DNA from: an uncultured Desulfurococcaceae archaeon
GTDB lineage: Archaea; Thermoproteota; Thermoprotei_A; Sulfolobales; NBVN01
Direction: 5' to 3'
NCBI GenBank assembly: GCA_964627805.1
Contig: CAZVLA010000004.1
Span: forward strand, 5,310-69,309
DNA: 64,000 bases
Made by a program: the position numbers and the translations under genes. The notes under the pieces were generated by a model. It saw only the letters and a program-made list of their open reading frames with translations. It ran no database searches and was not told the DNA's origin. Position 1 is the stretch's first letter; every line of letters starts with the position of its first letter. Positions 16,040 through 64,000 of the stretch are shown one piece after another.

Positions 16040-16288
16040 ATGTTGCCAGCAAGAACCGAGACACCTTTGAGGACCTTAAGATCAGCCATAAGTAGGGAAG
16101 TATTAGTTAAGGTTAAGGACGGTAACGCATATCATGGCAAGCTAATAATGACTGACTCGACCATGAATGTAGTAATGATTGATTGTGAAGAGTTAAGTGC
16201 TGATGAGAAACCAGTAGCTAGGTACGGTACTGTATTGATAAGGGGTAGTCAGATACTCTACATAGTACTTGATTACACACGCAAGTAG
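16040..16288 (+). CDS. Sm-like archaeal protein (SmAP)
   Basis: Sm1/Sm2 pattern VLVKVKDGNAYHGKLIMTDSTMNVVMIDCEE ... VLIRGSQILYI. Confidence 0.75.
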   Translation: MLPARTETPLRTLRSAISREVLVKVKDGNAYHGKLIMTDSTMNVVMIDCEELSADEKPVARYGTVLIRGSQILYIVLDYTRK

Positions 16289-16402
16289 AGGTAATAGGTA
16301 GCTAATGAAAATACCTGCCTTGCCCCCACCTACCTAGTTAGGGTGCGTGTTGCGTATAATTCTGGTTAGCTGTACAGTAATGTTTAGGTGATATTGAAAA
16401 CT

Positions 16403-16413
16403 TTTAATTTATC
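16403..16413 (+). promoter_or_regulatory. TATA-box-like element upstream of the SAM synthetase gene
   Basis: TTTTAATTTAT lies 30-40 nt upstream of ATG 16443. Confidence 0.35.
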
Positions 16414-16442
16414 TACACCCCCTACACACATAGGTAAGTACA

Positions 16443-17666: not shown

Positions 17667-17767
17667 TGTATTTTTAATTTAACGAAATAACCAATAAATA
17701 ACTAAATCCCCTAGTTATATAGGTCAGTTTAATATAGATCTTGAGTATTTTGATTATTAGGTGATGT

Positions 17768-18736
17768 GTGAAACCGGGACTGAAGAGTGATGATAGGTCG
17801 GTGTCTGATAACTTAAAATCCTCCTTAAGTAATTACTTAGAGGTTGAGTTAGTGTTACTCGTGGATATATACAATGAATTAGAGAGTAATGATTTCAAAA
17901 TACTCAACTTACTTGACAGATTACTTAGTAAGTATGAGTACGTACCTATAGAGGTTATTGAAAATAAAGTAAAGATACCGCCTAAGGAACTCCATAGGAG
18001 ATTATCTAAGCTAAATAAACTTAAGGTGATTAAAAGGTCATTAGCTCCTTTCCACGGGTATAGATTAACTTACTTAGGGCTTGATTGTCTAGCCGTTAGG
18101 GATCTAGTTAGGAGAGGTGTTATTGCTTATTTAGGAACTATGGTTGGTATGGGTAAGGAGAGTGAGATCTACATAGCTAAGGATAGTGAAGGTAATGTTA
18201 TAGCGGTTAAGTTCTACAAGATAGGTAGGGTGAGTTTCCAGAAGGTAGTTAGGGTACGTTCATACTTAACCGACGAACCTAACTGGATGATACGCTCTAA
18301 AGTAGCTGCTGAGAGGGAGTTTAAGGCTCTAAAGGAATTAATGAACTACTCCAAGTACGTACCTAAGGTCTACGGCTGGAGTAGACATGCAGTAGTTACG
18401 GAGTATATTGAAGGTACCGAGTTATATAGGTACGCTGAGGCTAAGGACCCGCTAAGCATGTTGAGGAAGATCTTAAGTACTTTGAGGGACGCATACGTTA
18501 AGGTAGGTATAGTTCATGGAGACTTAAGCGAGTATAATGTAATGGTTAAGATAGAGAGTGAGGATCCTTACATAATTGACTGGCCTCAGTACGTATACCG
18601 TGATGACCCTGAACATGAGAGGTACTTGAGAAGAGACGTTGAGTACATCATTAAGTTCTTTAAACGTAAATACAGAGTTGAGATCGACGTGAGTACGGCT
18701 CTCTCATATGTTAAGGGGGAAATTAATGAGGTCTGA
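17768..18736 (+). CDS. rio2: RIO2-type serine protein kinase
   Basis: N-terminal winged helix (YRLTYLGLDCLA) followed by the RIO domain (GMGKESEIY, AVKFYKIGR, catalytic HGDLSEYNV, IIDWPQ). Confidence 0.8.
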   Translation: MKPGLKSDDRSVSDNLKSSLSNYLEVELVLLVDIYNELESNDFKILNLLDRLLSKYEYVPIEVIENKVKIPPKELHRRLSKLNKLKVIKRSLAPFHGYRLTYLGLDCLAVRDLVRRGVIAYLGTMVGMGKESEIYIAKDSEGNVIAVKFYKIGRVSFQKVVRVRSYLTDEPNWMIRSKVAAEREFKALKELMNYSKYVPKVYGWSRHAVVTEYIEGTELYRYAEAKDPLSMLRKILSTLRDAYVKVGIVHGDLSEYNVMVKIESEDPYIIDWPQYVYRDDPEHERYLRRDVEYIIKFFKRKYRVEIDVSTALSYVKGEINEV

Positions 18737-20807: not shown

Positions 20808-20837
20808 TTATTAATTCCCTAAGCTTAAGAGGGGTAG

Positions 20838-21182
20838 GTGTGCAGGGTGGGTAGGAAGAAGTTAATATTTAAGCAGATTTACGGACCCGACATATTAGAA
20901 GGTAGGAAAACATCGACTGTAAGGCTGTACTCACCCGTTAAAAAAGGCGATATAGTTGAGATTAGAGCTGGTAAAGTAAAAATAGGGACAGCGATCATCG
21001 AGGACGTTGAGATTAAGGAGGTTAGGGAATTAACTGATGAAGACGCAAACATAGACGGTTTTAGCAATCGTGAGGAACTCATAAGGGCTTTAAGGAGAAT
21101 ATATGGTAGCAGGATAAGTGACACGACTGAGGTTAAGTTAATTAAGTTTAAGTTAATCGGTAAGGAGGAATCTACTCCTTAA
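20838..21182 (+). CDS. ASCH-domain protein
   Basis: ILEGRKTSTVRL..KKGDIVEIRAG..EDA..GF fits the ASCH/PUA-like pattern. Confidence 0.55.
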   Translation: MCRVGRKKLIFKQIYGPDILEGRKTSTVRLYSPVKKGDIVEIRAGKVKIGTAIIEDVEIKEVRELTDEDANIDGFSNREELIRALRRIYGSRISDTTEVKLIKFKLIGKEESTP

Positions 21183-21570
21183 TAGACACGGTAGCTATGC
21201 TTGACTTAGGTATTACTAAGGCCTTACCCTCATTCGTAACAACACCTAACTCATACCTTGTAACCTTCATTAATTTACCCTTAAGTACTGACCCATCAAC
21301 TAAAGTTACGTCAATCCTACACCCTATAAAGTCAGTAGTTAAGACCGTATCCTCTAACTCCTCCTGACTGTATCCGTGGAGGTCAGGAGGCTGAACTTCA
21401 ATAAACAGCACGGCATGCCTAAAGACTATAACGGGCCCGTCTCTGGTACGGAGACCTATCTCGTACCTACTAACTTCATCGATTACTCCCTCAATGAAGC
21501 CATCAACACCGATGACTTTAATCTTGGCAGACTTCCCAGTAAACCTACCGTCTAGGATGTTTTCCTTCAA
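21172..21570 (-). CDS. hypothetical protein with two tandem Sm/Hfq-like repeats
   Basis: Internal duplication is visible: IKVIGVDGFIEGVIDEVSRYEIGLRT..VIVFRHAVLFIEV versus IDVTLVDGSVLKGKLMKVTRYELGVVT..LVIPKSSIATVSI. Confidence 0.45.
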   Translation of the reverse strand: MKENILDGRFTGKSAKIKVIGVDGFIEGVIDEVSRYEIGLRTRDGPVIVFRHAVLFIEVQPPDLHGYSQEELEDTVLTTDFIGCRIDVTLVDGSVLKGKLMKVTRYELGVVTNEGKALVIPKSSIATVSIKE

Positions 21571-21647
21571 TTATACCTACCCAAGAATCAGAGGTGAGTT
21601 AAGAAAGTAAAAAGTATATATGTTAGTAATTTAAAAGAGCTACATAG

Positions 21648-21697
21648 ATGATGAAAGCCGGAGTGATGAATAGGGTGATTAGGCTGAGCTGCGCTGA
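21648..21697 (+). ncRNA. candidate C/D-box sRNA
   Basis: C box ATGATGA 21648-21654, 12-nt guide, D'-like TGAA 21667-21670, 4-5 nt spacer, C'-like GTGATTA 21675-21681, 12-nt guide 21682-21693, D box CTGA 21694-21697. Total about 50 nt, lying in a 150-nt gap between two minus-strand genes. Confidence 0.5.
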
Positions 21698-21721
21698 TTT
21701 GTAAGGGTTTTAAGTAATCAA

Positions 21722-22858
21722 TTAACTTACCTCTTTGTAGGCTAAACCTAACGATTCGGCGAGTTCATAGGCCCTACGCATTTCCTCTCCACTCGGTCTT
21801 CGGGCTATGTCGCTGTATTCCTTCCTATACTTAAGTACTAAGTACTCGGGCCTGTATTGGGCCATTACATTAACTAAGGCATGCTTACAGTTTACGGCTA
21901 TCCACTTAAGTACTGGTTCAGTACAGCAGTTCAGATGATTAGGTAGTACTAAGTGTCTAATGATGATGGGGTCGCCCTCCTTACATATTATGCTTAAGTT
22001 CCTAGTAACTACATTAAAGTAATTACTTACTTTAGATAGTCTTTCACCACAGGAATTATTACCGTACTTAAAGTCAGGTAGCCATATATCTATTAAGTCC
22101 TTAATTAGTTTAAGAGCTTCATTAGTTAAGTACATGTTGCTATTCCACAATTGCGGGACATTTACACGTACGTACTTAAGCGACGATATTATGGTATGTA
22201 TATTAGGTGTGGGGTCACCACCAACGTGGTTTATGTTTCTAGCACCTTCAAACCTTAAATACTCTTGAATAGCCGCTAACTCCGTCGGAGTTACTTTAAT
22301 CCCTGAGCGAGGATTAACTTGTGATATATCGTAATTTTGACAGTATACGCACTTGAAGTTACATCCACCGTAAAATATCGTACCACTAGGTACTAGGGGT
22401 GCCTCCTCACCCATATGTAGGAAGTACGACGATACGTAAGTATGTATGTCAATACTACAAGCACCTGACCTTAATCTCCTATCAATGCCGCATCTCCTCT
22501 CGCAGAACATGCATTCTCTAGTTATTCTCCAAGCAATCTCCTCCTTAATATCTATAAATGAGTACTTAGGGCTATCCATCTCCTCAACATCCTTAAGCGT
22601 TAAGTTACCTTCTCTAGCCTTACTAAGTAACTTAAGGAACTCTCTCCTAACCTCTTCGTGGAGATTCCATAATTCATCGTAACTTAATTCCTTAGGGTTC
22701 TGTTCAGTACCTACCTTCTTAGCTATTAGGAACTTAGCTGGTGTTCTATTCTCCATAACTCTTCTATACCACTTAAGCCTATCATTAACTACTTTAGACC
22801 TCCATACATACTCGGCATCGGGTCTTACTACCCTCCATAGCGCATTATTAAACCTCAT
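21722..22858 (-). CDS. radical SAM protein (PflA-like activating-enzyme family)
   Basis: CNFKCVYCQNYDIS gives the CxxxCxxC cluster motif, with an additional upstream Cys cluster (CMFCERRCG). Confidence 0.75.
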   Translation of the reverse strand: MRFNNALWRVVRPDAEYVWRSKVVNDRLKWYRRVMENRTPAKFLIAKKVGTEQNPKELSYDELWNLHEEVRREFLKLLSKAREGNLTLKDVEEMDSPKYSFIDIKEEIAWRITRECMFCERRCGIDRRLRSGACSIDIHTYVSSYFLHMGEEAPLVPSGTIFYGGCNFKCVYCQNYDISQVNPRSGIKVTPTELAAIQEYLRFEGARNINHVGGDPTPNIHTIISSLKYVRVNVPQLWNSNMYLTNEALKLIKDLIDIWLPDFKYGNNSCGERLSKVSNYFNVVTRNLSIICKEGDPIIIRHLVLPNHLNCCTEPVLKWIAVNCKHALVNVMAQYRPEYLVLKYRKEYSDIARRPSGEEMRRAYELAESLGLAYKEVS

Positions 22859-26111: not shown

Positions 26112-26214
26112 GCGGGGGTGCCCGAGCCAGGTCAAAGGGGTCGGGCTCAGGACCCTCAGGTGGGAGCCCCGATGGCAGAGGCCTGCGTGGGTTCAAATCC
26201 CACCCCCCGCACCA
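26112..26214 (+). tRNA. tRNA-Leu(CAG) with a 15-nt intron (26152-26166), CCA encoded
   Basis: Hand-folded. Acceptor GCGGGGG/CCCCCGC, D arm CCC/GGG, anticodon stem TCGGG/CCCGA with loop CTCAGG|intron|C, long variable arm, and T arm GTGGG-TTCAAAT-CCCAC. Confidence 0.8.
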
Positions 26215-40072: not shown

Positions 40073-40178
40073 GCCGCGGTAGTATAGCCCGGCCTAGTAT
40101 GCGGGCCTGTCGGGCCCGCCCTCCTCGAGAGGGCGCAGAAAGCCCGTGACCCGGGTTCAAATCCCGGCCGCGGCGCCA
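40073..40178 (+). tRNA. tRNA-Asp(GTC) with an intron of about 28 nt (40113-40140), CCA encoded
   Basis: Hand-folded. Acceptor GCCGCGG/CCGCGGC, D stem GTAT/GTAT, anticodon stem CGGGC/GCCCG, loop CTGTCG|intron|A, T arm CCGGG-TTCAAAT-CCCGG. The intron holds a 7-bp hairpin (40117-40123 / 40129-40135). Confidence 0.8.
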
Positions 40179-51150: not shown

Positions 51151-52194
51151 TCACAGTATTTTAACTATTTCGTAAAGACCGTTAAGGGCTAAGAAAATAC
51201 CTAAGTATGTAGGCACTTTACTTAAACCGCTTCTATTTAGTGTGAACTCCCTACCTAGAAATGAGACCTTACCAAGTGGTTCAACACCCTTCCTAGGTTT
51301 TACCAATACGTGTCCCTTCCAAGGAGCTATCTCAGTAGAGTACTTAAAGCTAAGTAACTCACTCTCACTTCCCAGTAGTATCGCAGGTAAGCCTGACTTA
51401 CCATTTATGCTTCCTGGTATTCTAATTAAGCGTGAGACGTCCTGAGTTACTTGCTCATCTATCTCAACACTTAACTTCCTAACACCTTCAATTACGTCCT
51501 CATGCGTGAAATCATCATTAAGCAAGCCCTCCCTAACTAACCTACCTGCCCAACCACCATCTATGGAATCCAATACTATCCTTGCCTTAACCCTCCCCCT
51601 CCTTATGGGTTTAGGTAGTGGAGATAATCTCTCCGGGTCGATACCCACTCCCTTAATGTAGTCAACTAATTCTCTTCTTTGATAACTACTTAACTTAAGC
51701 CAGTCATCATCCTTAGGTCTAACGACTGTATGGAACCCCCTATTACCGCTGAAGTATATCATTATCTCGTCATTAGTGAATCCGAAGTCGTGTTTAAGTA
51801 TGTCTATTAGTCTTAATTCATGCTCTTTAGCTAACTCTATACATTCATTACTAATAAACTCAATAGACTTACCTCCTACCTCTACCTTCTCTACATCACA
51901 TCCAGGTATGTGATCAGCATCAATGTCGAACATTAACTCACTACCCAACCAACCCTTCTCCTCCATCCTCTCAGCTGCTGGGTCTCTATAGATAGCTGAT
52001 GAGTAGTATGCCTGCCTAGGTGTTTTACTTACTAAGTAATTACGTAGGAGTGCTTCGTTCTGGAATGAGAGGTGCCTAACATAAACACCTTTCTCATACG
52101 TTTGAAAAGCGAATTCGCGTAGCATAAAATCCTTAGGTAAGTACAGCTTAGCTGAGGTGTAGTACTCCCTAAGTAGGTCCCTAAGAAGATCCAT
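51151..52194 (-). CDS. priS: DNA primase small (catalytic) subunit PriS
   Basis: REFAFQ..., catalytic ELMFDIDADH, FSGNRGFH, and RIPGSINGKSG. Confidence 0.85.
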   Translation of the reverse strand: MDLLRDLLREYYTSAKLYLPKDFMLREFAFQTYEKGVYVRHLSFQNEALLRNYLVSKTPRQAYYSSAIYRDPAAERMEEKGWLGSELMFDIDADHIPGCDVEKVEVGGKSIEFISNECIELAKEHELRLIDILKHDFGFTNDEIMIYFSGNRGFHTVVRPKDDDWLKLSSYQRRELVDYIKGVGIDPERLSPLPKPIRRGRVKARIVLDSIDGGWAGRLVREGLLNDDFTHEDVIEGVRKLSVEIDEQVTQDVSRLIRIPGSINGKSGLPAILLGSESELLSFKYSTEIAPWKGHVLVKPRKGVEPLGKVSFLGREFTLNRSGLSKVPTYLGIFLALNGLYEIVKIL

Positions 52195-52949
52195 TACTCC
52201 ACCCTAGGTGCTACGTAGTAGTTTACTTTGGCCCCTTGAACGTAGTTAAGTTCTAGGTGTAGCGGCATGTCAGTATCTGCTTGAATTACTACAGTATCTG
52301 CTAACTTAATGGGTTGCTTCATGTAGCTTAAGTACTCCATACCGTAGGTAACTGAAAATCCTGGATTCCCAACATTAGCCTCATCCAGCGTACCTCTCTC
52401 AATATCTAAGACGATCTCAGCCTCACCTAAGTCACTAATTGATTGTAGCTTTATGCTCCTTTCATCACCTGTTATCTTAAGTACATCGCCTACGTCCTCA
52501 ATAGCCTTAACAGCTTCGTGAAGTACGCTACCCCCTACCTTGTACGTGTTCTTATACTCAATACTTAACTCAGGTATTTCCTCAGCTGTAGCCTCTGACT
52601 GTAGAGGTAGTTTAAAGTATCTAGGAACGCCTCTACGCTCAAACATGAAAGTTATTGATGATTGATCCCAATCAATACCTATCTTATCATCCTTCTCTGC
52701 AGTCCTCATTATCTTACTCATGTCCTCGATGTTGAGGATTAGTTTAACGTCCTCGCTAACCTCGAAGGCGTCAAAGCCTTCTCTAGGGATTATCAACTCC
52801 ACTAATGCTGTCCTTGAGGGATCCATTGCCTTGAATTTCAAGCCCTCACTACTTACCTCAAGAAGCCCTACCTCAACGAACTTGCCCGTAGCTGCTATTA
52901 AGTACCTCCATAACCTAGCGTCTGCGAATAATAGCTTCATATACTGCAC
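52194..52949 (-). CDS. pcn: DNA polymerase sliding clamp PCNA
   Basis: About 248 aa with a two-domain repeat pattern (..GLKFKAMDPSRTALVELIIP.. / ..IKLQSISDLGEAEIVL..). 1-nt stop/start overlap with priS. Confidence 0.85.
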   Translation of the reverse strand: MQYMKLLFADARLWRYLIAATGKFVEVGLLEVSSEGLKFKAMDPSRTALVELIIPREGFDAFEVSEDVKLILNIEDMSKIMRTAEKDDKIGIDWDQSSITFMFERRGVPRYFKLPLQSEATAEEIPELSIEYKNTYKVGGSVLHEAVKAIEDVGDVLKITGDERSIKLQSISDLGEAEIVLDIERGTLDEANVGNPGFSVTYGMEYLSYMKQPIKLADTVVIQADTDMPLHLELNYVQGAKVNYYVAPRVE

Positions 52950-53027
52950 CGATTAATGTCTACCTTAGATTACTTATATAACTACCTCAGTAAATTAGCG
53001 TGGTTAGGAATGAGAAAGACGTAGTAA

Positions 53028-53372
53028 CTACTCGTACTCACGCCATACATGACCGCATTTAGTGCATTTATATATCCTCGTAGGCGGTTCATCAGCTCTC
53101 CTAGTCTGTATTATCTTGTAGTAAGCCTCGTCATGACCGCACTTAGGGCACTTAACACCCCTCATCTTAGGTACCCCCTTAAAGATCTCCTCAACATCAA
53201 TGACGTAGGTCCTCTCAACCTCCTTCCTATGCTGCACCCTCCTCTTGAGTAAGAGTGGTGCTGGGTTCGACTTACTAGCGTCTACTTCATAACCACATCT
53301 AGGACATACAAGTACTGTCCTATCACCTTTTCTCCTAGGTACCATAATACTACCGCATTTAGGGCAGAACAC
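53028..53372 (-). CDS. tfs: transcription cleavage factor TFS
   Basis: N-ribbon MFCPKCGSIMVP..CPRCGYE and C-ribbon CPKCGHDEAYYKIIQTRRADEPPTRIYKCTKCGHVW with the acidic RADEP tip. Confidence 0.9.
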   Translation of the reverse strand: MFCPKCGSIMVPRRKGDRTVLVCPRCGYEVDASKSNPAPLLLKRRVQHRKEVERTYVIDVEEIFKGVPKMRGVKCPKCGHDEAYYKIIQTRRADEPPTRIYKCTKCGHVWREYE

Positions 53373-53824: not shown

Positions 53825-53902
53825 GGGCCCGTGGCCTAGCCAGGAGAGGGCGCCGGCCTTCGGAGCCGGAGACCCCGGGTTCAAATCCCGGCGGGCCCGC
53901 CA
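53825..53902 (+). tRNA. tRNA-Arg(TCG), intron-less, CCA encoded
   Basis: Hand-folded, 75 nt plus CCA. Acceptor GGGCCCG/CGGGCCC, D stem GCCT/GGGC, anticodon stem CCGGC/GCCGG with loop CTTCGGA, T arm CCGGG-TTCAAAT-CCCGG. Confidence 0.85.
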
Positions 53903-53957
53903 CATAAAATACCCTAAATATAAGTTTTTCGAAGCGTCCCAGGTAAGTTTTTATACC

Positions 53958-53974
53958 TCTGGGACTGTCCCAGA
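53958..53974. repeat. perfect 8-1-8 palindrome TCTGGGAC-T-GTCCCAGA upstream of the integrase start
   Basis: Read directly. Further GTCCCAG/GGGAC copies are at 53936-53942 and 53990-53994. TAAGTTTTT is duplicated at 53921-53929 and 53945-53953. Confidence 0.6.
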
Positions 53975-53987
53975 CTCATGATGGGAA

Positions 53988-55344
53988 ATGGGACAAGGGC
54001 ATTGCGTACTGGAGGAATGGCAAGCACGTGAGGTGCTTCATAAACTCTACCGGCAATACGGAAGCGTGAGAAAACTAGCCGAGGCACTCGGAGCGAGTAA
54101 ATCCTCGACCCACCGCTGGCTGAAGGGCGAGTCGATACTGGTTCTCATCCGCATGAAGCTATGTGAAATGCTACCAGAGGAAGAGCTGGTCCAGATACTG
54201 AAGGGCCCCGAGCTCCTCCGAAAATACGGCCTGGTTGACGAGGAGGGGAGGCTCAACAAGCCACTCGTTCTCGCCCTGATAGACGCGCTGATGCAAGACG
54301 AGGCGCTGAAGGATGAGGTGTTAAACTACCTGTTAAAGTACTATAAGCGAGACCTCCAGGAGCGGTTAAGCGAAATCTTGCCCAAGATAGTTCTGGAGTG
54401 GAGCCCTGACTTCGAGCGCTGGCTCACAGAGAAGAAGAGCAAGCCTATTTCCGAGCGAACACTGCGCGACTACCGTAACCTCTGGTATAGATGTCTTGAA
54501 GGCAAGGTGTTGGGGTGGCACCTGCTTAAACAGTTGGAAGGAAACAAAATGCTCTGCAACGATGGCAAATATCATCCTACGGGGTGGGCTCGTCAAATAT
54601 TCAGACACTACATTAGGTATCTATATGCAAGCGGGAAGCTTGACTGGGATACCTACTCGCGTCTATTACTAGTTGTGCCCGGGAGGCGTTACGGTCGCAG
54701 GGTTAGCCAGAAGGTTGTCCGCGAATAGGACGTTATCGCGACTATAAGGAAGCTTGATGAGGCTGGGCGCGGCGATATCCTCACACTCTACCTCTTAATC
54801 CTTGGGTCGGGTGTCCGGTTTCTTCACGTGCTTGAGGCGCTTAACAACTGGAATCCCGAGGAAGAGCTATATGTACCCTATCTCAATAGAAACATTAAGC
54901 GGCTCGAATGCTTCGATGAATTCTGCCGGTACTACCTCGGCAAGGAAAAACAGTATCAAGCCAGCGGGCTTCATATACTTCCCCCGAATCATCCTACCAC
55001 TAGTCAAGACATTCGCAGGAAAGCTCCCGAACCGTCGCCGAATAGAGAAGGTAGTGAAGAAGCTTAACGGGCTGCCTCCAAAATACATCCGTATCTTCGC
55101 ACTAAGAGAAATGAAGCGAATCCTTGGCGATAACGATGTGTATAAATTCATAGTCGGGAAGTTCGGCGAACTTACGGTTTCAGCAAGGCACTACATGGAT
55201 TTACTAGAAGAGGCTGACAAGGTTTACCCGAAATACATCGGGCGATGGAGTGAGGTTGTGAGAAGAGGGATTGGACCCGACGTTGAATCCGGCGATGTTA
55301 TCGTGCTTGTGCCGAAGAAGGAGGAAACGGACCGCAGACTGTAA
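53988..55344 (+). pseudogene. tyrosine recombinase/integrase, disrupted (in-frame TAG 54726-54728 plus a frameshift near A5 run 54946-54950)
   Basis: Three track ORFs join into one integrase. 53988-54728 holds an N-terminal HTH (SVRKLAEALGASKSSTHRWL) and a SAM-like domain (ISERTLRDYRNLWYRCL). Reading through the TAG in the same frame gives ..ILTLYLLILGSGVRFLHVLEAL (box I Arg). After a frame change come KPAGFIYFPRII..., YIRIFALREM and GELTVSARHY (box II with the Tyr nucleophile). Confidence 0.6.
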
Positions 55345-55602: not shown

Positions 55603-55947
55603 TTATAGTGGATGTTTAAACCTTATATAAACAGAGTTTATAATCCGGCTTTCAAGTCTTGCTATCTCTTCTCTGGAATACAGCTTTTCCATTTCCTCCC
55701 AGAATCTTTTATCGTGCTGTATTGAGCCCGTTTTATAGTGTGCAAGTTCATGTATTAAGATGTACTTCAGGGATTCATCGTCAAGCTCGTGTACGATGTA
55801 CTTGTTCAATCGTATAGTCTTGGTTTTAAACGATATTGACGCTATTTTACGTTTCATTGGATAAAGCACTACACGTAGGCCGTTATCCTCTATTCCCCAA
55901 AGCTCCATAGCTTCGCGAAGCAACTTCTCAATTCTTTGTTTTGTCAC
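55603..55947 (-). CDS. DUF45/M48-like zinc metallopeptidase (YgjP-like)
   Basis: Contains the HExxH motif in ILIHELAHYKTGSIQHDKRFWEEM. It overlaps the hsdR 3' end by 20 nt on the same strand. Confidence 0.7.
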   Translation of the reverse strand: MTKQRIEKLLREAMELWGIEDNGLRVVLYPMKRKIASISFKTKTIRLNKYIVHELDDESLKYILIHELAHYKTGSIQHDKRFWEEMEKLYSREEIARLESRIINSVYIRFKHPL

Positions 55948-58900
55948 TTTTAATCACCCGCTCTATCTCGGGTGAGACAAATTCTTCGATAAGCTTGTCA
56001 GCAAGTTTAGCGAGCTCATTTGGAGGAACTAGTCCTTTGAGCTCTCTAATTAGGTCAGATAGTAATGCCTTAGCAAGCTTCTTTTTATCTGAAGGTTTTA
56101 GGAACCCGGCCTTCTTTGATGATAATAGCCTTCCTATAGTTCTTTTTGTGTTAGTTAGTTTCAGACGTAGCTTGGTTTCCTTTAGCACTTCAGTAGATAT
56201 GTAAATGCTGATAGCTTCAACCATTCTATCCTCTAAAGCCTTTCCAGAAACCCTCCTATCGTACTCAAGTTTCTGCTCGTGAAGGGCCTTTAGCTGTGCT
56301 AGGAAAGTCTTTAAATCTATTTTCCTCATTATCCATTGTCTTCTAAGCTCTTCAAGTCTTCTCATAATCTCTCTATAGATGGGGTCATGTGGATTGCTAG
56401 ATAGTATGCTTCTTAGATAGAAGTAGTAGTCGGCAACTATTCTTTGGATCTCACGTTTTGGCGGTGTAACCCTTAGTATGTTCTCTATAGTATCAACGTC
56501 TATCTCCACCTCGGCGATCTTATTGAACTCCTCAACTAGGGTCCTTGAGTAAATGAGCTGAGTAAGCTCCTTCCAGAACTCCTTATCGAGCCTAATACTT
56601 TTCCTCCTGATCTTCTTCAATATGCTACCATATATGAACGCTAATACTTGCATGTCTTCAACATAGAATAGTTTCTTTGGATGGGCTCCTAGGGATCTGT
56701 ATAGCTTAATAGCTCTACGCATATCGTTTACGAGACTCTTAGCTAATGCTACCTCTTCAGATGCTTCCATACTTGATGCATAGAGCGCTATTATACCGAT
56801 CTTCCTTTCAAATTCATCACGGTTAAACGTGTTATCACGTAGTTGTCTCTTAAGCTCGTCGATATCTATAGAAACATCCTCATTACCTAATCTAAGGTTT
56901 TTCAACCTATAGCTAATGCTCTTAAAGAGTTCTTCAAACTCCTCGACCTTCTTTTCTATTTCTACGAGTAGGTTTTCCTCAAAGTCTCTACGGATATCTT
57001 CTTCAGCGAGAAGATTATAGAGAGCGAGAGTCTTAGATAAATGCTCTAGAAGACCTACAGAGTCCACGATTAGTCCAAATTCTTTATCCCTATATGGTCT
57101 ATTCACTCTAGCAATAGCTTGTAGAAGCCTGTGCTCGTACAAGGGCTTGTCTAAGTACATCACCTTGAGCATCGGTGCATCAAAACCTGTTATCAGCATA
57201 TCAGTTACAATCAGTATCTTAGGCTTATCCTCTTCCAGGAACCTTCTCTGGATCTCTCTGTTAACCTCGTTCATATCGCTGGTACCATATTTCTTTGCAA
57301 GTTCTTCGCGATACTCTATAATCTCCTTATCAGTATCATTATAGTTGTATGTCATTACGACTTCTACCCAGTCTTTCGCCTCATCACCATATTTTGCTAC
57401 TAGGTATTTCTCTAACGCACGTTTGTATCTAACGCATGCAACTCTATTAACTGCTACAACCATGGCCTTGAACTTGAAACCTTCAGTATCTTTCTCCAGC
57501 CTCTCAACAATATACTTAGCAAGCTTATCGATTCTCTCAGGATTCATTAGGAATACTCTGACTTTATTGATATACTTGCTTACCCGCTTATACATAGTGT
57601 CTAGATGCTCAGTAATGTCTATGCCTTTTTCACGTGCTCTCATGTATTCCTCTATGAATCCCTTAATCTCCTCCTCAGTAAGCTTAATCCTAATACCCTC
57701 TCCACCGACTTCCCCCTCACCAACAGCATGGTACACAAGCGGCAGTGTGAACCCATCTCTAATAGAGTCCCTTATAAAGTAGACATCGAGATAGTATTCA
57801 CCCTCGTGTGGATAAGCGAACTCGACGAAAGTGTTTCTCTCATGTTTGAATACTGGAGTCCCTGTGAATCCGAAGGCTAAAGCGTTTGGAAAAACTGTTT
57901 TCCTCATTGCGGCTAGGATGCCATACTGCGTTCTATGGGCTTCATCGATTAATAGAAGTATATTCCTGCTCTTGACTTGCCCCAGCCCGACAAGATACTC
58001 TAATTTTCCTTTCTCATCAAGCCTTTCGAGAGCCTTAATGTGCTTCTCGTACTCTTCAGGATTCTCCGATTTAAAGTATTCTAAATACTCCTCACCAAGC
58101 TCCCTCAAAAGATCCAAGAGCCCCTTAGCAAACTCTCTTTCCTCGGAGCTAGGCTCGCTCGCTCCCCTCCGAAACTTCTGGATCGTAGTAAGATAAACGC
58201 CGTAGGCTATGGTGCCTCCACGAAACTCGCTCTCCTTAATAACCCTTATCAGCTTGTGGAGCTCTTCTATGCTCTCAACTTTCTTGAATAATCTCTTAAA
58301 CTTTCCTTCCTCGATGGACTTGAGCATTCTTTCATGCTGTTCCTCAAGATCTCTCCTATCAACGATAAAGAAGACTACCGGTCTCTCATGCCAGTACTTG
58401 TCGAGGAACCAGTTAGCTATAAAGAACATAGTATATGTTTTACCGCTACCAAGCCAGTGCCAGATAAGCCCCTTATTCTTCTCCCCGCCCCCCATGTACT
58501 CGTCAATTCTGGCCATAGCCTTCTTGGCAGCATAATACTGGTTGTATCGCGCGACAATCTTGTCTAGAACACCTTCACGACCCCTACGATAGAACACGAA
58601 GTACTTGATAAACTCAAGAAGCCGTCTAGGCTCAAGAATATAAGTTACATCGAAACGCTCAACAACTTTCCCAGAAACATCCCTCTCCTTCACAACCCAC
58701 CTATAGATGGGTAAATCACGTTCAAACCTATCCCAATTGGGTAAGGTAGGAGTATACCTCTCCTCATCACCAACAGCAACACCAAACTGAACATACTTGA
58801 AAAGCTCAGGGCTATACATCTCGTAGCGACGGATCTGCTTAACAGCCTCAAGATAAGAGTATGGCTCAATAAGCCTCTTAACCTCGACGATAACAAGCGG

Positions 58901-59347
58901 TATACCATTAACGTATAGAGTTATGTCGGGCTTGATATTATCGGGAGAACCCCTAAACTTTGCCTCCCGAAGATAGAAAAAGACATTATTCTCGGGTTTC
59001 TCATAGTCTATAAGCCGTATACTCACCTTCCTCCTACGCTTTCTAAGATAAACCTCAACACCATACTTAAGGTAGTCAAGAACCCTAACCTCACTATCAC
59101 CACGAAGCCTATCCAAAACCTCGCGAAGAACCTCCTCTTCCTCCTCAACACTTAGATTAGCAAAAACATCGTAGTTAATCCTCCTAATAATATCCCTTAA
59201 TACCCTATCGAAGAATAGCGGAACAAGATCACCCTCCTCAAAATCAGTACCATACTTCCTCAAATACTCCTTACCATTAACCCAGCCCAAACGCTCAAGC
59301 TTAGTAACAAAACTCTCAACATCGACAATTTCGTATCGGACGCACAT
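55928..59347 (-). CDS. hsdR: Type I restriction enzyme R subunit
   Basis: 1139 aa. N-terminal PD-(D/E)xK nuclease (PDITLYVNGIPLVIVEVK), SF2 motor (WLGSGKTYTM, LLIDEAHRTQYG, GFTGTP, TDMLITGFDAP, QAIARVNR), and a long helical C-terminus. Confidence 0.9.
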   Translation of the reverse strand: MCVRYEIVDVESFVTKLERLGWVNGKEYLRKYGTDFEEGDLVPLFFDRVLRDIIRRINYDVFANLSVEEEEEVLREVLDRLRGDSEVRVLDYLKYGVEVYLRKRRRKVSIRLIDYEKPENNVFFYLREAKFRGSPDNIKPDITLYVNGIPLVIVEVKRLIEPYSYLEAVKQIRRYEMYSPELFKYVQFGVAVGDEERYTPTLPNWDRFERDLPIYRWVVKERDVSGKVVERFDVTYILEPRRLLEFIKYFVFYRRGREGVLDKIVARYNQYYAAKKAMARIDEYMGGGEKNKGLIWHWLGSGKTYTMFFIANWFLDKYWHERPVVFFIVDRRDLEEQHERMLKSIEEGKFKRLFKKVESIEELHKLIRVIKESEFRGGTIAYGVYLTTIQKFRRGASEPSSEEREFAKGLLDLLRELGEEYLEYFKSENPEEYEKHIKALERLDEKGKLEYLVGLGQVKSRNILLLIDEAHRTQYGILAAMRKTVFPNALAFGFTGTPVFKHERNTFVEFAYPHEGEYYLDVYFIRDSIRDGFTLPLVYHAVGEGEVGGEGIRIKLTEEEIKGFIEEYMRAREKGIDITEHLDTMYKRVSKYINKVRVFLMNPERIDKLAKYIVERLEKDTEGFKFKAMVVAVNRVACVRYKRALEKYLVAKYGDEAKDWVEVVMTYNYNDTDKEIIEYREELAKKYGTSDMNEVNREIQRRFLEEDKPKILIVTDMLITGFDAPMLKVMYLDKPLYEHRLLQAIARVNRPYRDKEFGLIVDSVGLLEHLSKTLALYNLLAEEDIRRDFEENLLVEIEKKVEEFEELFKSISYRLKNLRLGNEDVSIDIDELKRQLRDNTFNRDEFERKIGIIALYASSMEASEEVALAKSLVNDMRRAIKLYRSLGAHPKKLFYVEDMQVLAFIYGSILKKIRRKSIRLDKEFWKELTQLIYSRTLVEEFNKIAEVEIDVDTIENILRVTPPKREIQRIVADYYFYLRSILSSNPHDPIYREIMRRLEELRRQWIMRKIDLKTFLAQLKALHEQKLEYDRRVSGKALEDRMVEAISIYISTEVLKETKLRLKLTNTKRTIGRLLSSKKAGFLKPSDKKKLAKALLSDLIRELKGLVPPNELAKLADKLIEEFVSPEIERVIKSDKTKN

Positions 59348-59364
59348 AATGTCACCATGGTAAT

Positions 59365-60579
59365 TTAGTCGATAGGCGAATCCTTGACACGTACCTTACC
59401 AACGAGTAGGAGATTCATTAGACTATTCTTTAATTTTATAAGTATTTCTTTATGAATCGTCTCAGCTTTAAGAAGCTTATCAATCATTTCTAAGATTTCA
59501 GCTATCTTTATTTGTTCATCGAGGGAAGGTAACGGAATTTTTAAGCTTTCTAATAAGTTTCGCGTAATAACAGCATGCCCACCAGCAGCTCTATATGCCA
59601 TTTTTCTAAGATTAATCTTGATTAATGAATAATACAGGTATGGAGGATAGATCAGATCTTTACGGCATTGAATGTATAAAGCATTATCGCTAATCCATAC
59701 CTTCCCTTTAGCTAAATATACTTTGCCTACGCTCCCGGCACCAACTCTAGCTACTACGATAATAAATTCATCATCTACTAAATAGCTATCGGTATATCCA
59801 GCCAATCCTCCAGCACCAAATATAGGGAAGCCTCCTCTTTCAAGTATGATATGTGGTCTCTTGCCATGTTTAATAGTAGCAACCTCATGTAATTTAACTA
59901 CTTTCCATTCTTTTGGTATTTTTCCTATTTCTGTTTCCTTGTACTCCCTGTGTCCTATCCCATGAGTCATTAGGTAGTCTAGTAGTGCACGACGAAGCTC
60001 TTCAACCCTAGAGATGATAGTCTCAGTCTTAGCAATAGCTTCATCAACGGTATAAAGAATCCTAGCAATCTTACGTTGTTCATCAAGAGGAGGAAGAGGA
60101 ATTGAAACTTCGCCCAAACGCTTTAGCGAGATTTCCTTGTACGTGCTTCCTCCTGCAAGACTTTTTAGATAAGGCTTCATTATTTGGATCAAGTAGTAGT
60201 AGAATAACACATCTACTTTATTAGGTTCTTTGGGAATTAAGGCGACAATACCTTGGTTTATTGTAACCTCAATCTTGTTTATGGCACATTCTCCGATGGT
60301 GGCTCTTGTAGTTACAAGCAACGAATTCTTTGGAACAAGTTTTAATCTCTTAGACTCCATTCCCTTTTCTGTTAAATATTTGGATGTTCTCTCTAGGAAT
60401 ACCTGATCAGAGCGACTTAAAGTAGTTATGTCTGTAGGAGTGACAAACGGAATATCGCCATTCCAGTAGTCTGGCACTTTAGTCGAAGGTGTAGTACCTT
60501 TATAGAGATTAAATAGGTCTCTTATCTTGACTATTCTCCAGTCATCTGGTATTGTATTAAATCCTTGGTATAAAGCCAT
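59365..60579 (-). CDS. hsdS: Type I restriction-modification S (specificity) subunit
   Basis: Two target-recognition domains, each followed by a conserved helix (LPPLDEQRKIARIL... and LPSLDEQIKIAEIL...). It lies between hsdM and hsdR. Confidence 0.85.
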   Translation of the reverse strand: MALYQGFNTIPDDWRIVKIRDLFNLYKGTTPSTKVPDYWNGDIPFVTPTDITTLSRSDQVFLERTSKYLTEKGMESKRLKLVPKNSLLVTTRATIGECAINKIEVTINQGIVALIPKEPNKVDVLFYYYLIQIMKPYLKSLAGGSTYKEISLKRLGEVSIPLPPLDEQRKIARILYTVDEAIAKTETIISRVEELRRALLDYLMTHGIGHREYKETEIGKIPKEWKVVKLHEVATIKHGKRPHIILERGGFPIFGAGGLAGYTDSYLVDDEFIIVVARVGAGSVGKVYLAKGKVWISDNALYIQCRKDLIYPPYLYYSLIKINLRKMAYRAAGGHAVITRNLLESLKIPLPSLDEQIKIAEILEMIDKLLKAETIHKEILIKLKNSLMNLLLVGKVRVKDSPID

Positions 60580-60580
60580 G

Positions 60581-62332
60581 CTATTTCACCAAACCTAGTA
60601 TTTGAAGATAATGCTCAATCTTTTGCTCTAGTTCTTCTCTCTCTTTAGTTAATCGTTTAATCTCACTCCATAGTTTTGCTATGTCTGCTTGCTCTGTTGT
60701 GATTAGTGGTTGTACGTAGATTGTTACGTTGAGGTTGTAGTCGTTCTTTCTTATCTCTTCTAAGGGTACTATTCTTGAGAATCCTGGTTCCTCGCGGTAT
60801 TCTTTATAGGCCTTTACGATTTTCTCAATGTTTTCTTCGGCTAGTATATTCAGTCTCCTGACCTCGGGATGTGGTTTGTACTCGTTGCTCGCGTTTATGA
60901 ATAATATTTTGCCTTTCCTCTCGGGTGGTTTCTGCTTGTTAAAGACTAGGATTACTCCTGGTGCCTGTGTGTTGTAGAAGAGCTTCTCTGGTAGCAGTAT
61001 TACTGCTTCGAGCAGATCATCCTCCACTATCCTCTTCCTTATCTCTTTCTCTCTGCCTCCTCTGAAGAGTACTCCTTGGTCTATTACTACAGCCATCTTC
61101 TTCTTGGTGTAGGCTAGCATTAGCTGTATCCATGCCCAGTCAGCTGTGTTGTTTGGTGGATATCCATACCTATAGATCCTTCTTAGCTTGGGATCCTTAG
61201 AAAGGACTTCTTCTCCATAGCCATCCTGGTTCCATGGTGGATTCGCTAGTACGTAGTCGGCTTCGGGAAATCTCGGGTTTAGTAGGCTGTCTCCAACGTA
61301 TAGTTCGAAGTCTCTGATATTGTTGAGTAGTAGGTTGAGCTTTGCGAGTACAGCTGTGATCTCGTTTCTCTCCTGAGCATAGAGCATTAGGTCAGGCTCC
61401 GCATGCTCTCCTCCTTCTTGTATGAGCTTTGATCTAACGTACTTGTAGGATTCTATGAGCATTGCTGCTGAACCAGCGGCGGGGTCAAGGACCGTGCTTC
61501 CGTTTTCAACGTCTAGTAGGCGTACCATGAGTTTAATTACTTCTCTTGGTGTGTAGACTTCTCCCTCCTTAGCCTTCTGAGGTGCAAAGTAGCCTAGAAT
61601 CCACTGGTAGGCTTCTCCGAGGATATCGTAGTCTACCTGTGATAGGTCTAGCTCGTTGAAGAGCTTTACTATCCCCTCAAGTATGTGCATGTTGTCTTCA
61701 CTTATGAATCCAGTTAAGCCTAGTACCTCGACAAGCTTTGAAAGTTCCCTTATCTCTTCGTTTAATTCAGCTATTCTCAGTAGAGCGTTTGTTATCTCTC
61801 TAAGGGTTTCCCTCTTCTTGGTAACTTCATGCCATGTTAACAGTTTCTGTTCATCCTCGTCGTAGAGGACAAAGTATTCCCTGTTAGCTAGTAGATAAGC
61901 CTCTGTAACGCTACATCCCTCACTAACATACTTCTTGACTAGGGCCTGCCACTTATCACTAATAGCCTTGTAGAACAGAAACAGGAGAAGAACCTTGTAA
62001 TCGACGCCGCCACGAATAAGGTCAGCACCAGCTTTTAAAGCTTTGAACAGGCGGTCCCTGGTAACCTTTTTCTCGGCGGGTATTACAAGCCTATAAACAC
62101 TATACCTATGGTCGAGAGCATACTTCTCTACACGGACAAGACCGTGTTTTTGAAGTATTGAGAGAAGCTCCTTAACACTACCAGTCTCAATACCAGCTTT
62201 CCGGAGAGCCTCTTCGGCTTCAGAGAGCATGAATGGCCTTGAACCAAACGTCTTCTCTAGAATGAGATAGCGCTTCTTAACCCAGTTCTCAACGTGAGCA
62301 AGCCTCTCCCAGACACTACCCACTAGCCTCAC
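60581..62332 (-). CDS. hsdM: Type I restriction-modification M subunit (N6-adenine methyltransferase) with N-terminal extension
   Basis: HsdM_N-like ADLIRGGVDYKVLLLFLFYKAISD, SAM motif VLDPAAGSAAM, catalytic LANPPWNQ. About 95 extra N-terminal residues look like a winged helix. Confidence 0.9.
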   Translation of the reverse strand: MRLVGSVWERLAHVENWVKKRYLILEKTFGSRPFMLSEAEEALRKAGIETGSVKELLSILQKHGLVRVEKYALDHRYSVYRLVIPAEKKVTRDRLFKALKAGADLIRGGVDYKVLLLFLFYKAISDKWQALVKKYVSEGCSVTEAYLLANREYFVLYDEDEQKLLTWHEVTKKRETLREITNALLRIAELNEEIRELSKLVEVLGLTGFISEDNMHILEGIVKLFNELDLSQVDYDILGEAYQWILGYFAPQKAKEGEVYTPREVIKLMVRLLDVENGSTVLDPAAGSAAMLIESYKYVRSKLIQEGGEHAEPDLMLYAQERNEITAVLAKLNLLLNNIRDFELYVGDSLLNPRFPEADYVLANPPWNQDGYGEEVLSKDPKLRRIYRYGYPPNNTADWAWIQLMLAYTKKKMAVVIDQGVLFRGGREKEIRKRIVEDDLLEAVILLPEKLFYNTQAPGVILVFNKQKPPERKGKILFINASNEYKPHPEVRRLNILAEENIEKIVKAYKEYREEPGFSRIVPLEEIRKNDYNLNVTIYVQPLITTEQADIAKLWSEIKRLTKEREELEQKIEHYLQILGLVK

Positions 62333-62337
62333 CTAAC

Positions 62338-62365
62338 CGGTAGACTGCTACAATAGTATCTACCG
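62338..62365. repeat. inverted repeat CGGTAGA-N14-TCTACCG in the hsdM / cas10-like divergent intergenic region
   Basis: Read directly. Also present are CCCTA-N8-TAGGG (62384-62401) and a TAGGGTA direct repeat (62397-62403, 62410-62416). Confidence 0.55.
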
Positions 62366-62431
62366 ATTCGTTTAAAGCCTTTCCCCTAGTTAATAATAGG
62401 GTAGGCTGTTAGGGTAAAGTGAGGTAAGACA

Positions 62432-64000
62432 ATGTGCGATAGCTACTATGTTGTGACGATAGGAGCGTTTCTTCACGACATTGGTAAAATAGTGACGAAT
62501 TACTTGTATGATCACAAGGACTTCATGGTATACATTGAGAAGGGTAGAGGTGTAAAGAGCCATAGGCATGCTAAGGTGGGTTCACTTCTTCTTTCTAACT
62601 ATGGTTTTCCCGAATATATAGTGCATATCGTTGAAAAGCATCATGAAAGTGACGTGAAAGATCCTGTTAAGAAGGTGCAGTGGGCTGATCGGTTTGACGC
62701 CAGCTATAGAGCTGGTACGGCAAGGGATAAGGGAAGGAAACTCCCAATAGAGATTGGCGCAGCAATCGGCTTAGATGTAACGAAGACTCTTCATGGGTTT
62801 GACCTAGGCAATTACGTAAAGCATTTCTTAGAGCATATAAACGATATTATTGTAAGTAATCCGAAACTTGCAGCACTGCTTATAGATGGCTTTTATCGTG
62901 AGGCTACCATTCACCTGAGATCTGATAGTATAGGCGATGATAACATATCACTCTATGCTCATTCTAAAATCGTTGCCGCATTGACTAGCCTAAAAGTACA
63001 ATATCCCGATTCCAACCATGTTTTAGTTGTCATAGAGCCTGCTATTGAAGAGCGAGCACAGTTTATGACTGTTGATGTAATAGAGTACCTCGCAGGTTTA
63101 CACTTATATACTTACTTCGGTGTTTTAGGCGCAGCCTCTTGCATGTTAAATGACCTTAGACTCGACCCATCATTTCATATAGCTTCGGAAATGTCGTCAC
63201 GTTTTGTAGTGATTATAGGAGAGGAACATGTGGGGTTGCTCGTTGATCGTTTAAGAAGGCTCGCGACGGATCTCGCTATGCCTATACATGTTGAATCTTA
63301 CATTATGAGAAGAGGTATACTAAGAAAGGATGCAAACATTAGGATAGAGCCAGAGCCTTTACCACTATCAGCAACTTCCCAGCTTGTATGTGACATATGT
63401 CACCAACCGATATATAATAAAAATTTAATGCTTATCCTAAAGAGAGCGTCAAAAACACTTAGACTTTGCGAGCGTTGTAGCATTATAATGCATACATACA
63501 AGGTTTTAGCAAACAGCAAAGGTATTTTATGCATTAAGAGGGGCGAAGACGGGCTGTTGAAGTACCCGCGGTTAAGCTTAGCAGTAACTCTCTGTGACCC
63601 CTTTGAGGACAGTGACTACATAGTGGCACGTATAGCAGGTTTTCAAGCCAAAAGTATTGAGGACAAAACAGCATTAATACCCTCCATAGATATCTATCTG
63701 AATGTGTTCCGAAAAGAATACAAATACTTTACTGGAATATCATATAAAAGACTATTGAATAAGTTAATTAATGAGGGTAAACTTCATGAATATATATCTA
63801 CCGTTAATATTTTGAACAGGCAGTTAATGCATATTATTGGAGAAGCAAGTCAAAACACTAGGATATATCCGCTTGAGATACTCGATGATAGGGCAATACT
63901 TGAGATATTATCGCCGTTTGACTTAAACTCCATTATTAGTAATTCGATAAAGTCGGAATTGGGGAAATATACCATAATAACTATACTGCGTAGGGGTGCT
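62432..64000 (+). CDS. Cas10/Csm1-like HD-palm protein, 5' partial view (ORF open to the window end)
   Basis: Hand translation gives 523 sense codons from ATG 62432, with in-frame TGA at 62420 and GTGAGGT upstream. Motifs seen: GAFLHDIGKI, HRHAKVG, EKHHES, WADRFDASYR (HD set), ISLYAHSKIVAAL, Cys4 knuckle CDICHQ..CERC, and IYPLEILDD at the position of the Cas10 GGDD motif. Confidence 0.6.
   Translation, partial: MCDSYYVVTIGAFLHDIGKIVTNYLYDHKDFMVYIEKGRGVKSHRHAKVGSLLLSNYGFPEYIVHIVEKHHESDVKDPVKKVQWADRFDASYRAGTARDKGRKLPIEIGAAIGLDVTKTLHGFDLGNYVKHFLEHINDIIVSNPKLAALLIDGFYREATIHLRSDSIGDDNISLYAHSKIVAALTSLKVQYPDSNHVLVVIEPAIEERAQFMTVDVIEYLAGLHLYTYFGVLGAASCMLNDLRLDPSFHIASEMSSRFVVIIGEEHVGLLVDRLRRLATDLAMPIHVESYIMRRGILRKDANIRIEPEPLPLSATSQLVCDICHQPIYNKNLMLILKRASKTLRLCERCSIIMHTYKVLANSKGILCIKRGEDGLLKYPRLSLAVTLCDPFEDSDYIVARIAGFQAKSIEDKTALIPSIDIYLNVFRKEYKYFTGISYKRLLNKLINEGKLHEYISTVNILNRQLMHIIGEASQNTRIYPLEILDDRAILEILSPFDLNSIISNSIKSELGKYTIITILRRGA

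Follow-up and report, generated by a model that had tools for sequence, protein, structure and literature searches.

A highly diverged cas10 gene at the head of a compact, probably III-F-like type III effector module on an archaeal tRNA-Arg integrative element

The cas10 gene at the end of the window

The stretch of archaeal DNA analysed here (64 kb of contig CAZVLA010000004.1, hereafter the window) ends within an open reading frame (ORF) on the forward strand, which begins at the ATG at 62432 and runs for 523 sense codons to the end of the window without a stop. An earlier inspection of the sequence (the original prediction) had read this frame as a divergent Cas10-like protein with an intact HD nuclease domain and a degenerate cyclase motif, lying beside a type I restriction–modification (R-M) operon, and had offered two explanations: the first gene of a type III or type I-D CRISPR module, or a stand-alone protein of a non-CRISPR defence island. 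Comparison with loci and proteins of relatives fetched for this purpose (designated by L and P numbers, respectively) establishes the ORF as a genuine, though strongly diverged, cas10 and as the first gene of a compact four-gene type III (Csm-like) effector, which is likely to be a III-F-like minimal system that uses CRISPR RNAs (crRNAs) in trans. The features of the gene and of the region immediately upstream are the following.

62333 to 62431, no strand: divergent intergenic region between hsdM and cas10, 99 nt (direct reading of the sequence).
62432 to 64000, + strand: cas10 (type III large subunit), codons 1–523 of 683 (ORF, P0001, L001, AlphaFold2 and Foldseek, hhalign).
62453 to 62701, + strand: HD nuclease domain, aa 8–90, with the HD dyad H15-D16 at 62474–62479, followed by H46, H70/H71, D86 and D89 (Pfam HD, PADLOC Cas10, NCBIfam Csm1, invariance).
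62939 to 63346, + strand: Palm1 domain, approximately aa 170–305, opening with SLYAHSK (aa 173–179, 62948–62968) (alignment to Csm1/Cas10).
63389 to 63478, + strand: Cys4 zinc knuckle, C320, C323, C346 and C349 (invariant; aligned to Cas10 CxxC...CxxC).
63725 to 64000, + strand: start of the degenerate Palm2 domain (secondary structure of the AlphaFold2 model, full-length fold in Foldseek).

The start of the gene was reproduced exactly as first described, with an in-frame TGA (62420–62422) 12 nt ahead of the ATG and a ribosome-binding-like GTGAGGT motif at 62419–62425 (−13 to −7 relative to the ATG). As had also been recognized, the ORF is missing from the program-made list because the frame leaves the window without closing. 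By a rough estimate, a stop-free run of this length would occur by chance with a probability of (1 − 0.06)^523, or ~1e-14, at ~41% GC. The ORF is a real gene, since it recurs in other assemblies, both as a protein (P0001) identical to the full 683-aa product, of which the window holds the first three-quarters, and as ten orthologues with 47–71% identity, all of 671–686 aa; a further clade shows ~32% identity. Two loci extend the view beyond the window: L001 is 100% identical to positions 62121–64000 and adds 1.5 kb, carrying cas10 through to its stop codon, while L050, from a strain 99.4% identical, adds 4.5 kb downstream. The intergenic region contains the A/T-rich, TATA-like stretches TTTAAA (62372–62377) and TTAATAATA (62390–62398), which may act as promoter elements; a sigma-70 promoter scan of this region returned no matches, as expected for an archaeon.

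Identification of the product as a diverged Cas10

Single-sequence searches recognize the HD domain only (Pfam HD, 1.1e-9; PADLOC Cas10, 5e-10). The NCBIfam Csm1 model TIGR02578 scores 33–34 bits, below its cutoff of 170 and over the HD region alone, and a phmmer search of the ORF against the PDB returned no matches, Csm1 being reached by the family profile alone. A profile built from 14 family sequences picks out two motifs in collinear order, LHDIGKI and SLYDHSK, in Enterococcus Csm1 (9g9a_A), and an exhaustive profile search reaches true Cas10 proteins at 1e-6 to 3e-4. Alignment with hhalign to four bona fide Cas10 proteins, themselves verified as full length against Cas10 models, gave a probability of 99.4% (E = 1.6e-21) over aa 1–370, a region that comprises the HD domain, Palm1 and the zinc finger.

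The AlphaFold2 model of the full protein (predicted local distance difference test score, pLDDT, 84.9; predicted template-modelling score, pTM, 0.86) extends this similarity to the whole chain. The top 50 Foldseek matches in the PDB are all Cas10/Csm1 chains of type III-A complexes, with ~800 aligned columns, a template-modelling (TM) score of ~0.5 and a best E value of 8e-15 (6ifn_A). The complete Cas10 architecture, composed of HD domain, Palm1, zinc finger, Palm2 and a helical C-terminal domain, can thus be traced, with the C-terminal half recognized by its fold: hhalign of aa 365–683 against the C-terminal halves of real Cas10 proteins was not significant in either global or local mode, so that Palm2 cannot be mapped by sequence and both it and the helical C-terminal domain are assigned from the predicted structure. 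Two of the checks proposed with the original prediction, profile and structure comparison, both returned significant Cas10 similarity, and the divergent Cas10 first suggested from a few motifs is supported.

The family is very rare and lies below every curated Cas10 threshold. Only 11 representatives with E < 1e-30 were found among 1.84 billion entries and ~15 clusters at 90% identity among 5.8 billion, and a scan of GTDB genomes gave one true relative, in an Archaeoglobaceae metagenome-assembled genome (MAG), the other 29 matches being generic HD domains. No name for the family was found in any source searched. Since it escapes the curated Cas10 thresholds, standard pipelines would miss the system.

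Domains and active sites

All of the motifs quoted in the original prediction were found at their places in the translation. Those of the HD domain are IGAFLHDIGKI (aa 10–20), HRHAKVG (aa 44–50), VEKHHES (aa 67–73) and QWADRFDASYRAG (aa 83–95). Residues H15, D16, H46, H71, D86 and D89 are invariant across the 14 sequences, which include clades with 21–26% identity, and coincide, in alignments with real Cas10 proteins, with their HD, HH and D positions; the set of ligands is complete, as had been claimed, and judging from these residues the HD nuclease looks functional.

The element that opens Palm1 (ISLYAHSKIVAALTSL, aa 172–187) was likewise correctly recognized: SLYAHSK aligns to SLYDHSK of Enterococcus Csm1 (9g9a_A) and to real Cas10 proteins, with L174 and H177 unchanged in all family members. 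The four cysteines of the zinc knuckle (C320/C323...C346/C349) are invariant in every clade and aligned with the CxxC...CxxC of real Cas10 proteins; CHQP and LCERC are separated by 18 residues and not by 19 as first counted.

The cyclase site is different. In the AlphaFold2 model aa 432–555 follow the palm order β-α-α-β-β-α-β-α-β. The first strand (aa 432–437, YFTGIS, 63725–63742) contains no aspartate where canonical Cas10 has DxD, and the β2–β3 hairpin (aa 478–483/487–492, within RIYPLEILDDRAILEI, aa 477–492) carries L484-D485-D486 at its turn (63881–63889). By topology, ILDD would therefore occupy the position of the GGDD hairpin, in agreement with the original assignment. The segment LSLAVTLCDPFEDSD (aa 381–395), which had been taken as the DxDxLG site, is probably not the DxD site, as judged by topology and spacing: its CDPFEDSD (aa 388–395) lies ~90 residues ahead of the hairpin, against ~56 in real Cas10 proteins, and is not conserved. 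With the first-strand aspartate absent, and with SS, SL or D-P-T standing in place of the DD pair in other clades, the cyclase site appears degenerate throughout the family. The known Cas10 subtypes with an inactive palm likewise lack the GGDD cyclase motif (PMC11229360; PMC12669027).

A conserved operon of cas10, cas11, cas7 and cas5

In L001 and L050, cas10 is directly followed by overlapping or abutting ORFs for a 125-aa all-helical protein and two RAMP proteins of 304 and 266 aa. The same four-gene order is found in L002/L037, L004, L006, L041, L044, L046, L048, L051, L052–54 and L055, so that cas10 is followed by cas11, cas7 and cas5 wherever a homologous locus extends far enough, and the composition of a type III effector module (cas10 with cas5, cas7 and cas11) is kept in more than 12 loci, L001 included. 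The first alternative of the original prediction, that the gene opens a type III module continuing past the end of the window, is thereby confirmed. An orphan reading had been said to fall if a complete canonical operon with an adjacent array lay immediately downstream; a module of four genes is indeed there, but it is not canonical and has no array, and the locus is neither a canonical system nor an orphan.

The 304-aa protein is a Csm3-type Cas7 (PADLOC Csm3, 1e-20 to 1e-21), which matches Thermococcus Csm3 in the PDB at 4.9e-16 and has an IHxC...CPVC zinc-ribbon insertion in common with it. Its D32 is invariant in eight of eight sequences across clades and aligned to the aspartate of the Csm3 'GGID' motif; since that aspartate is an alanine in the target-bound 6mur construct, D32 is identified as the catalytic residue. 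The 266-aa protein is a Csm4-type Cas5 (PADLOC Csm4, 4e-15 to 6e-16; NCBIfam 48–49 bits against a cutoff of 55).

The small subunit, a separate ORF of 107–125 aa between cas10 and cas7 in all loci, is the weakest assignment. Pfam Csm2_III-A matches were obtained for seven of the eight orthologues, all below threshold (best 2.5e-4), and fall at a conserved C-terminal LRKLxxALINFYKYY motif. The predicted structure of the small subunit has a pLDDT of 87.4. None of its Foldseek matches was significant; among those listed, the highest TM-score was 0.44, to Cas11 chains of Csm complexes (8bmw_B), at an E value of ~3–4. The protein is probably Cas11 (Csm2-like). Its ORF and the end of cas10 have 8 nt in common (L001 2356–2363, with equivalents in L002, L041, L044, L046 and L048), an overlap that suggests translational coupling within the operon, and the start codon is TTG in L001 and L002.

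Downstream of cas5 the module simply ends, at a convergent, unannotated and unrelated gene in L050, and in the Archaeoglobaceae MAG (L006) it runs directly into ribosomal protein genes, with no ancillary genes. In L041 (5487–9197), a locus with a 70%-identical orthologue, two ORFs of unknown function and a split UvrD-like helicase (448 and 338 aa) follow; these genes are not conserved in other loci.

The identity of the neighbours also bears on the second system named in the original prediction. The large subunit of type I-D systems, Cas10d, combines an HD domain with an inactive palm, just as the protein described here is predicted to do. The neighbours are, however, Csm2/3/4-type proteins and not Csc1, Csc2 or Cas3', the structural matches (Foldseek top 50) are all Csm1, and the PADLOC matches listed at E ≤ 10, headed by type III Cas10 and Csm1, include no Cas10d model. 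At 683 aa, the protein is moreover shorter than a typical Cas10d. The chance that it is the large subunit of a type I-D system is negligible, and this candidate was rejected.

CRISPR arrays and cas6 in related loci

No CRISPR array, cas6, cas1/2 or CARF gene was found anywhere in the 64 kb window, which extends to its full length what had been noted for the DNA upstream of cas10. The locus thus stands without array, cas6, adaptation genes or CARF effector; there is likewise no array in the 4.5 kb downstream in L050, nor in the fetched loci L002/L037, L006, L041, L044, L046 and L048. Most close-clade loci are without array and cas6 within 5–10 kb, and neither CARF/SAVED effectors nor adaptation genes were found at any locus examined.

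The association is nevertheless present in other members of the family. In L004, the Cas10 of which is 47–48% identical, an array of 101 repeats, oriented like the module, starts ~200 nt past cas5 (14336–22031; unit CTTTCAATCCTCTTTTAGAGGATTTCTCTTGAAAG, spacers of ~41 nt) and reaches the end of the part fetched from a 35.5-kb contig. Its repeat ends in ...CTTGAAAG, the kind of ending that yields a Cas6-type 8-nt 5' handle. In the distant clades L051, L052–54 and L055, a cas6 gene (PF10040) adjoins the module, and in L052–54 (P0022 clade) two arrays with a 24-nt repeat, GAATCCTATAAAAGGATTAGAAAG, flank the module and cas6 in opposite orientations (57–670 and 6006–6301 in L052; also in L053 and L054). 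In summary, arrays and cas6 are absent from the window and L050, L004 has an array, and L051–L055 have cas6 and/or arrays: the family is a self-contained CRISPR–Cas effector module, and the clade to which the window belongs has usually lost its own array and cas6.

The distribution of arrays could also be read as that of a crRNA-independent derivative of type III (compare HRAMP/ARAMP), with a RAMP backbone that binds other RNA or none, or of a module with a role in competition between elements or outside defence. Array-less type III derivatives have been described (PMC12669027), most close-clade loci have neither array nor cas6 nearby and in two genomes a tRNA-Arg integrative element carries the module, all of which would suit such a derivative. 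On the other hand, the array of L004 lies immediately downstream of the module, is oriented like it and has repeats with the 3' end ...TTGAAAG, as is typical where Cas6 generates 8-nt handles, and the distant clades have cas6 and flanking arrays. Most III-B, III-C and III-F loci are similarly array-less but are assumed to draw on crRNAs in trans (PMC12669027), and HRAMP/ARAMP go with other nucleases (HNH, PD-(D/E)xK; PMC12669027), none of which was seen beside the module. Independence from crRNAs is accordingly considered unlikely, and use of crRNAs in trans remains the preferred reading.

Integrative element and restriction–modification neighbours

Upstream of cas10, the window contains the left end of an integrative element and the type I R-M operon.

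53825 to 55344, + strand: left end of the integrative element, tRNA-Arg(TCG) and disrupted integrase (tRNA scan; Phage_integr_3 and helix–turn–helix matches).
53825 to 53902, + strand: tRNA-Arg(TCG) (tRNA search).
55603 to 62332, − strand: type I R-M operon with YgjP-like metallopeptidase (Pfam).
55603 to 55947, − strand: YgjP-like/SprT-like metallopeptidase, 114 aa (Pfam YgjP-like, 1e-10).
55928 to 59347, − strand: hsdR (Pfam HSDR_N/SWI2_SNF2/ResIII).
59365 to 60579, − strand: hsdS (Pfam Methylase_S, 4e-65).
60581 to 62332, − strand: hsdM (Pfam N6_Mtase, 1e-99).

The order along the element is tRNA-Arg, split integrase, YgjP-like gene, hsdR, hsdS and hsdM (− strand) and then cas10. The integrase, of the SSV type, is split into two ORFs (53988–54728, 246 aa; 54802–55344, 180 aa), its central part being missing; these align to residues 12–253 and 333–426 of the intact 441-aa integrase of L002 with 66–69% identity. 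The GC content climbs to 0.47 at 54–56 kb of the window. The YgjP-like ORF shares 20 nt with the 3' end of hsdR and represents a small accessory gene within the R-M operon.

A matching layout is seen in L037 (4661–17051; the same as L002; Cas10 63% identical), where tRNA-Arg(TCG) and the intact 441-aa integrase are followed by three unknown genes, the four-gene module, a 931-aa TmtA-like defence protein (PADLOC TmtA, 1e-89) and a resolvase. The TmtA-like protein has a sacsin-type ATPase N-terminus and a NOV_C C-terminus. On account of this match, the module is recognized as a conserved part of the cargo in a family of tRNA-Arg integrative elements, the other cargo of which varies. An att-like repeat of the tRNA-Arg 3' end was found neither downstream in the window nor in the 17 kb of L037, and no relatives were detected in annotated plasmids and phages (tblastn) or in IMG/VR viral contigs (pattern scan).

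The disrupted integrase and the lack of array and cas6 in view could mean that the module is a remnant in decay, without function, on a mobile element that is itself dead. This is very unlikely: all four ORFs are intact both here and in the 99.4%-identical strain, and catalytic and structural residues are invariant over clades with 21–70% overall identity, which argues for purifying selection.

The original prediction had further envisaged a stand-alone, Cas10-derived HD nuclease that belongs to a non-CRISPR defence island and works with the adjacent type I R-M system. CRISPR, cas6, cas1/2 and CARF genes are absent from the window, as this would entail, and a divergent hsdM-hsdS is again found upstream of cas10 in a 70%-identical orthologue (L042). 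The divergent hsdM–cas10 pair is, however, confined to the closest relatives, L042 and L050, and the R-M neighbour is absent from L002/L037, L004, L006, L046 and L051–55, which points to co-location of cargo and not to conserved functional coupling. Furthermore, genes for cas11-, cas7- and cas5-like proteins abut or overlap cas10 in L001 and follow it in all loci of sufficient length, and relatives possess arrays and cas6. The stand-alone reading is refuted by the conserved RAMP genes, and the proposed coupling to R-M was discarded with it.

Elsewhere in the window, two tRNA genes (26112–26211 and 40073–40175, ~100 nt) were found by Rfam and not by ARAGORN and presumably contain introns. The host is marked as an archaeon by these genes and by those for TFS, PCNA and the primase small subunit (51151–53372).

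Relationship to known type III subtypes

Subtypes III-F and III-H were compared by gene content and published descriptions. In gene content the family resembles III-F (type locus Thermotoga lettingae Tlet_0097–Tlet_0100), with cas10, cas11, a single cas7 and cas5 and no cas6. In the 2020 classification the III-F effector reportedly consists of cas10, cas5, cas11 and a single cas7. The Cas11 of III-F is of the Csm type (PMC11127173), no cas6 homologue has been described for the subtype (PMC8616872) and most of its loci are without an array (PMC12669027). Its Cas10 generally has an HD nuclease but never the cyclase motifs, and no III-F system has ancillary effectors (PMC11229360); the same combination of HD domain present and cyclase motif absent is found here. 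Its target is listed merely as 'DNA?' (PMC8036902). The four genes at the locus, unaccompanied by cas6, adaptation or ancillary genes, conform to this pattern, with Cas11 as the least certain member and with the qualification that distant clades do have cas6. The family differs from III-F in being archaeal, in residing on an integrative element, in keeping the catalytic aspartate of Cas7 and in having clades with adjacent cas6 and arrays.

Membership of subtype III-H ('Ca. Argoarchaeum ethanivorans' AEth_01085) is a second option. Like the family, III-H is archaeal and known from MAGs or metagenomes only, has an inactivated palm with an apparently active HD domain, lacks an adaptation module and effectors dependent on cyclic oligoadenylate (cOA) and shows reductive evolution; it is described as a rare, distant relative of III-F found only in MAGs (PMC12669027). 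The hosts of the family are archaeal too, to judge from the Archaeoglobaceae MAG and the intron-bearing tRNAs. In III-H, however, a diverged Cas11 replaces the C-terminal domain of Cas10, and the complex has been modelled without a separate Cas11 (PMC12669027), whereas here a separate 107–125-aa ORF is found in all loci and the Cas10 C-terminal domain gave no significant hhalign match to the small-subunit profile. The Cas7 of III-H also lacks the conserved catalytic aspartates (PMC12669027), in contrast to the invariant D32 (8/8) of the family. Assignment to III-H in place of a III-F-like system is thus rather improbable, if less so than independence from crRNAs.

The best matches of the four subunits are Csm1, Csm2, Csm3 and Csm4 of III-A systems (Thermococcus onnurineus, Streptococcus thermophilus), with which the family shares the Csm1 HD motifs, SLYxHSK and zinc finger and the zinc-ribbon insertion of Thermococcus Csm3. 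In contrast to III-A, the locus has four genes only, with no Csm5, Cas6 or Csm6/CARF protein; GGDD is lost, Palm2 is unrecognizable by sequence and the curated III-A models all score below their cutoffs. Subtype III-C resembles the family in its cyclase-inactive Cas10, often with an HD domain, in the absence of known effectors and in immunity without cOA (PMC11229360), but has Cmr-type subunits (a Cmr5-type Cas11 and several Cas7 paralogues) in place of the Csm-type subunits and single Cas7 seen here.

Type III subtypes that are HD-positive, cyclase-negative, effector-less and mostly array-less are already known, namely III-C and III-F (PMC11229360; PMC8036902) and III-G and III-H (PMC12669027). 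The III-G and III-H labels are not in use in Altae-Tran 2023. The system described here is a rare example of this known kind of reduced, cyclase-dead type III system. It is conceivable, but doubtful, that the family forms a separate subtype-level lineage apart from III-F and III-H: a Csm-derived four-gene effector that kept Cas7 RNA cleavage and the HD DNase and lost cOA signalling, one clade of which shed cas6 and arrays to become portable cargo of tRNA-Arg elements that borrows the crRNAs of its host.

Proposed function and significance

Several observations weigh against a III-F-like effector supplied with crRNAs in trans. For this genome, neither the 64 kb upstream nor the 4.5 kb downstream in L050 showed an array or cas6, six of the seven close-clade contexts are without arrays and the array of L004 could serve another cas locus beyond the fetched DNA. 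The curated Cas10 models all stay below threshold (TIGR02578, 33–34 bits against 170, over the HD part), and the matches behind Cas11 are sub-threshold in profile searches and not significant in Foldseek. The Palm2 and D4 assignments derive from a predicted structure, in which GGDD was mapped by the order of secondary-structure elements and not by residue-level superposition.

The mechanism proposed below is derived from the established biochemistry of type III-A systems. The products of cas10, cas11 (125 aa), cas7 (304 aa) and cas5 (266 aa) would form a complex around a crRNA, transcribed from an array at another site in the genome and processed by a Cas6; array and Cas6 are both placed elsewhere because the locus has neither. 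Upon pairing of the crRNA with the transcript of an invader, Cas7, which has kept its catalytic aspartate, would cut the RNA, and the HD domain of Cas10 would be switched on to degrade DNA. As the cyclase site of Palm2 appears to be dead, no cOA signal would be made, which is in keeping with the lack of a CARF/SAVED effector nearby. The operon is carried by an element integrated at tRNA-Arg, with a decayed integrase and a type I R-M system also aboard.

With these results an ambiguous truncated ORF is settled as a genuine cas10, and what appeared to be an orphan is found to be the head of a complete minimal effector, which enlarges the known set of reduced, cyclase-dead type III systems (III-C/F/G/H). 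Two points are of specialist interest, neither of which overturns current understanding. Firstly, the retained Cas7 aspartate together with an active HD domain and a dead palm would make this a signalling-free complex of four proteins that cleaves both RNA and DNA. Secondly, the module recurs as cargo of tRNA-Arg elements in the company of other defence genes, type I R-M here and a TmtA-like protein elsewhere, and would illustrate how mobile elements carry CRISPR effectors that have no array and need to rely on crRNAs in trans.

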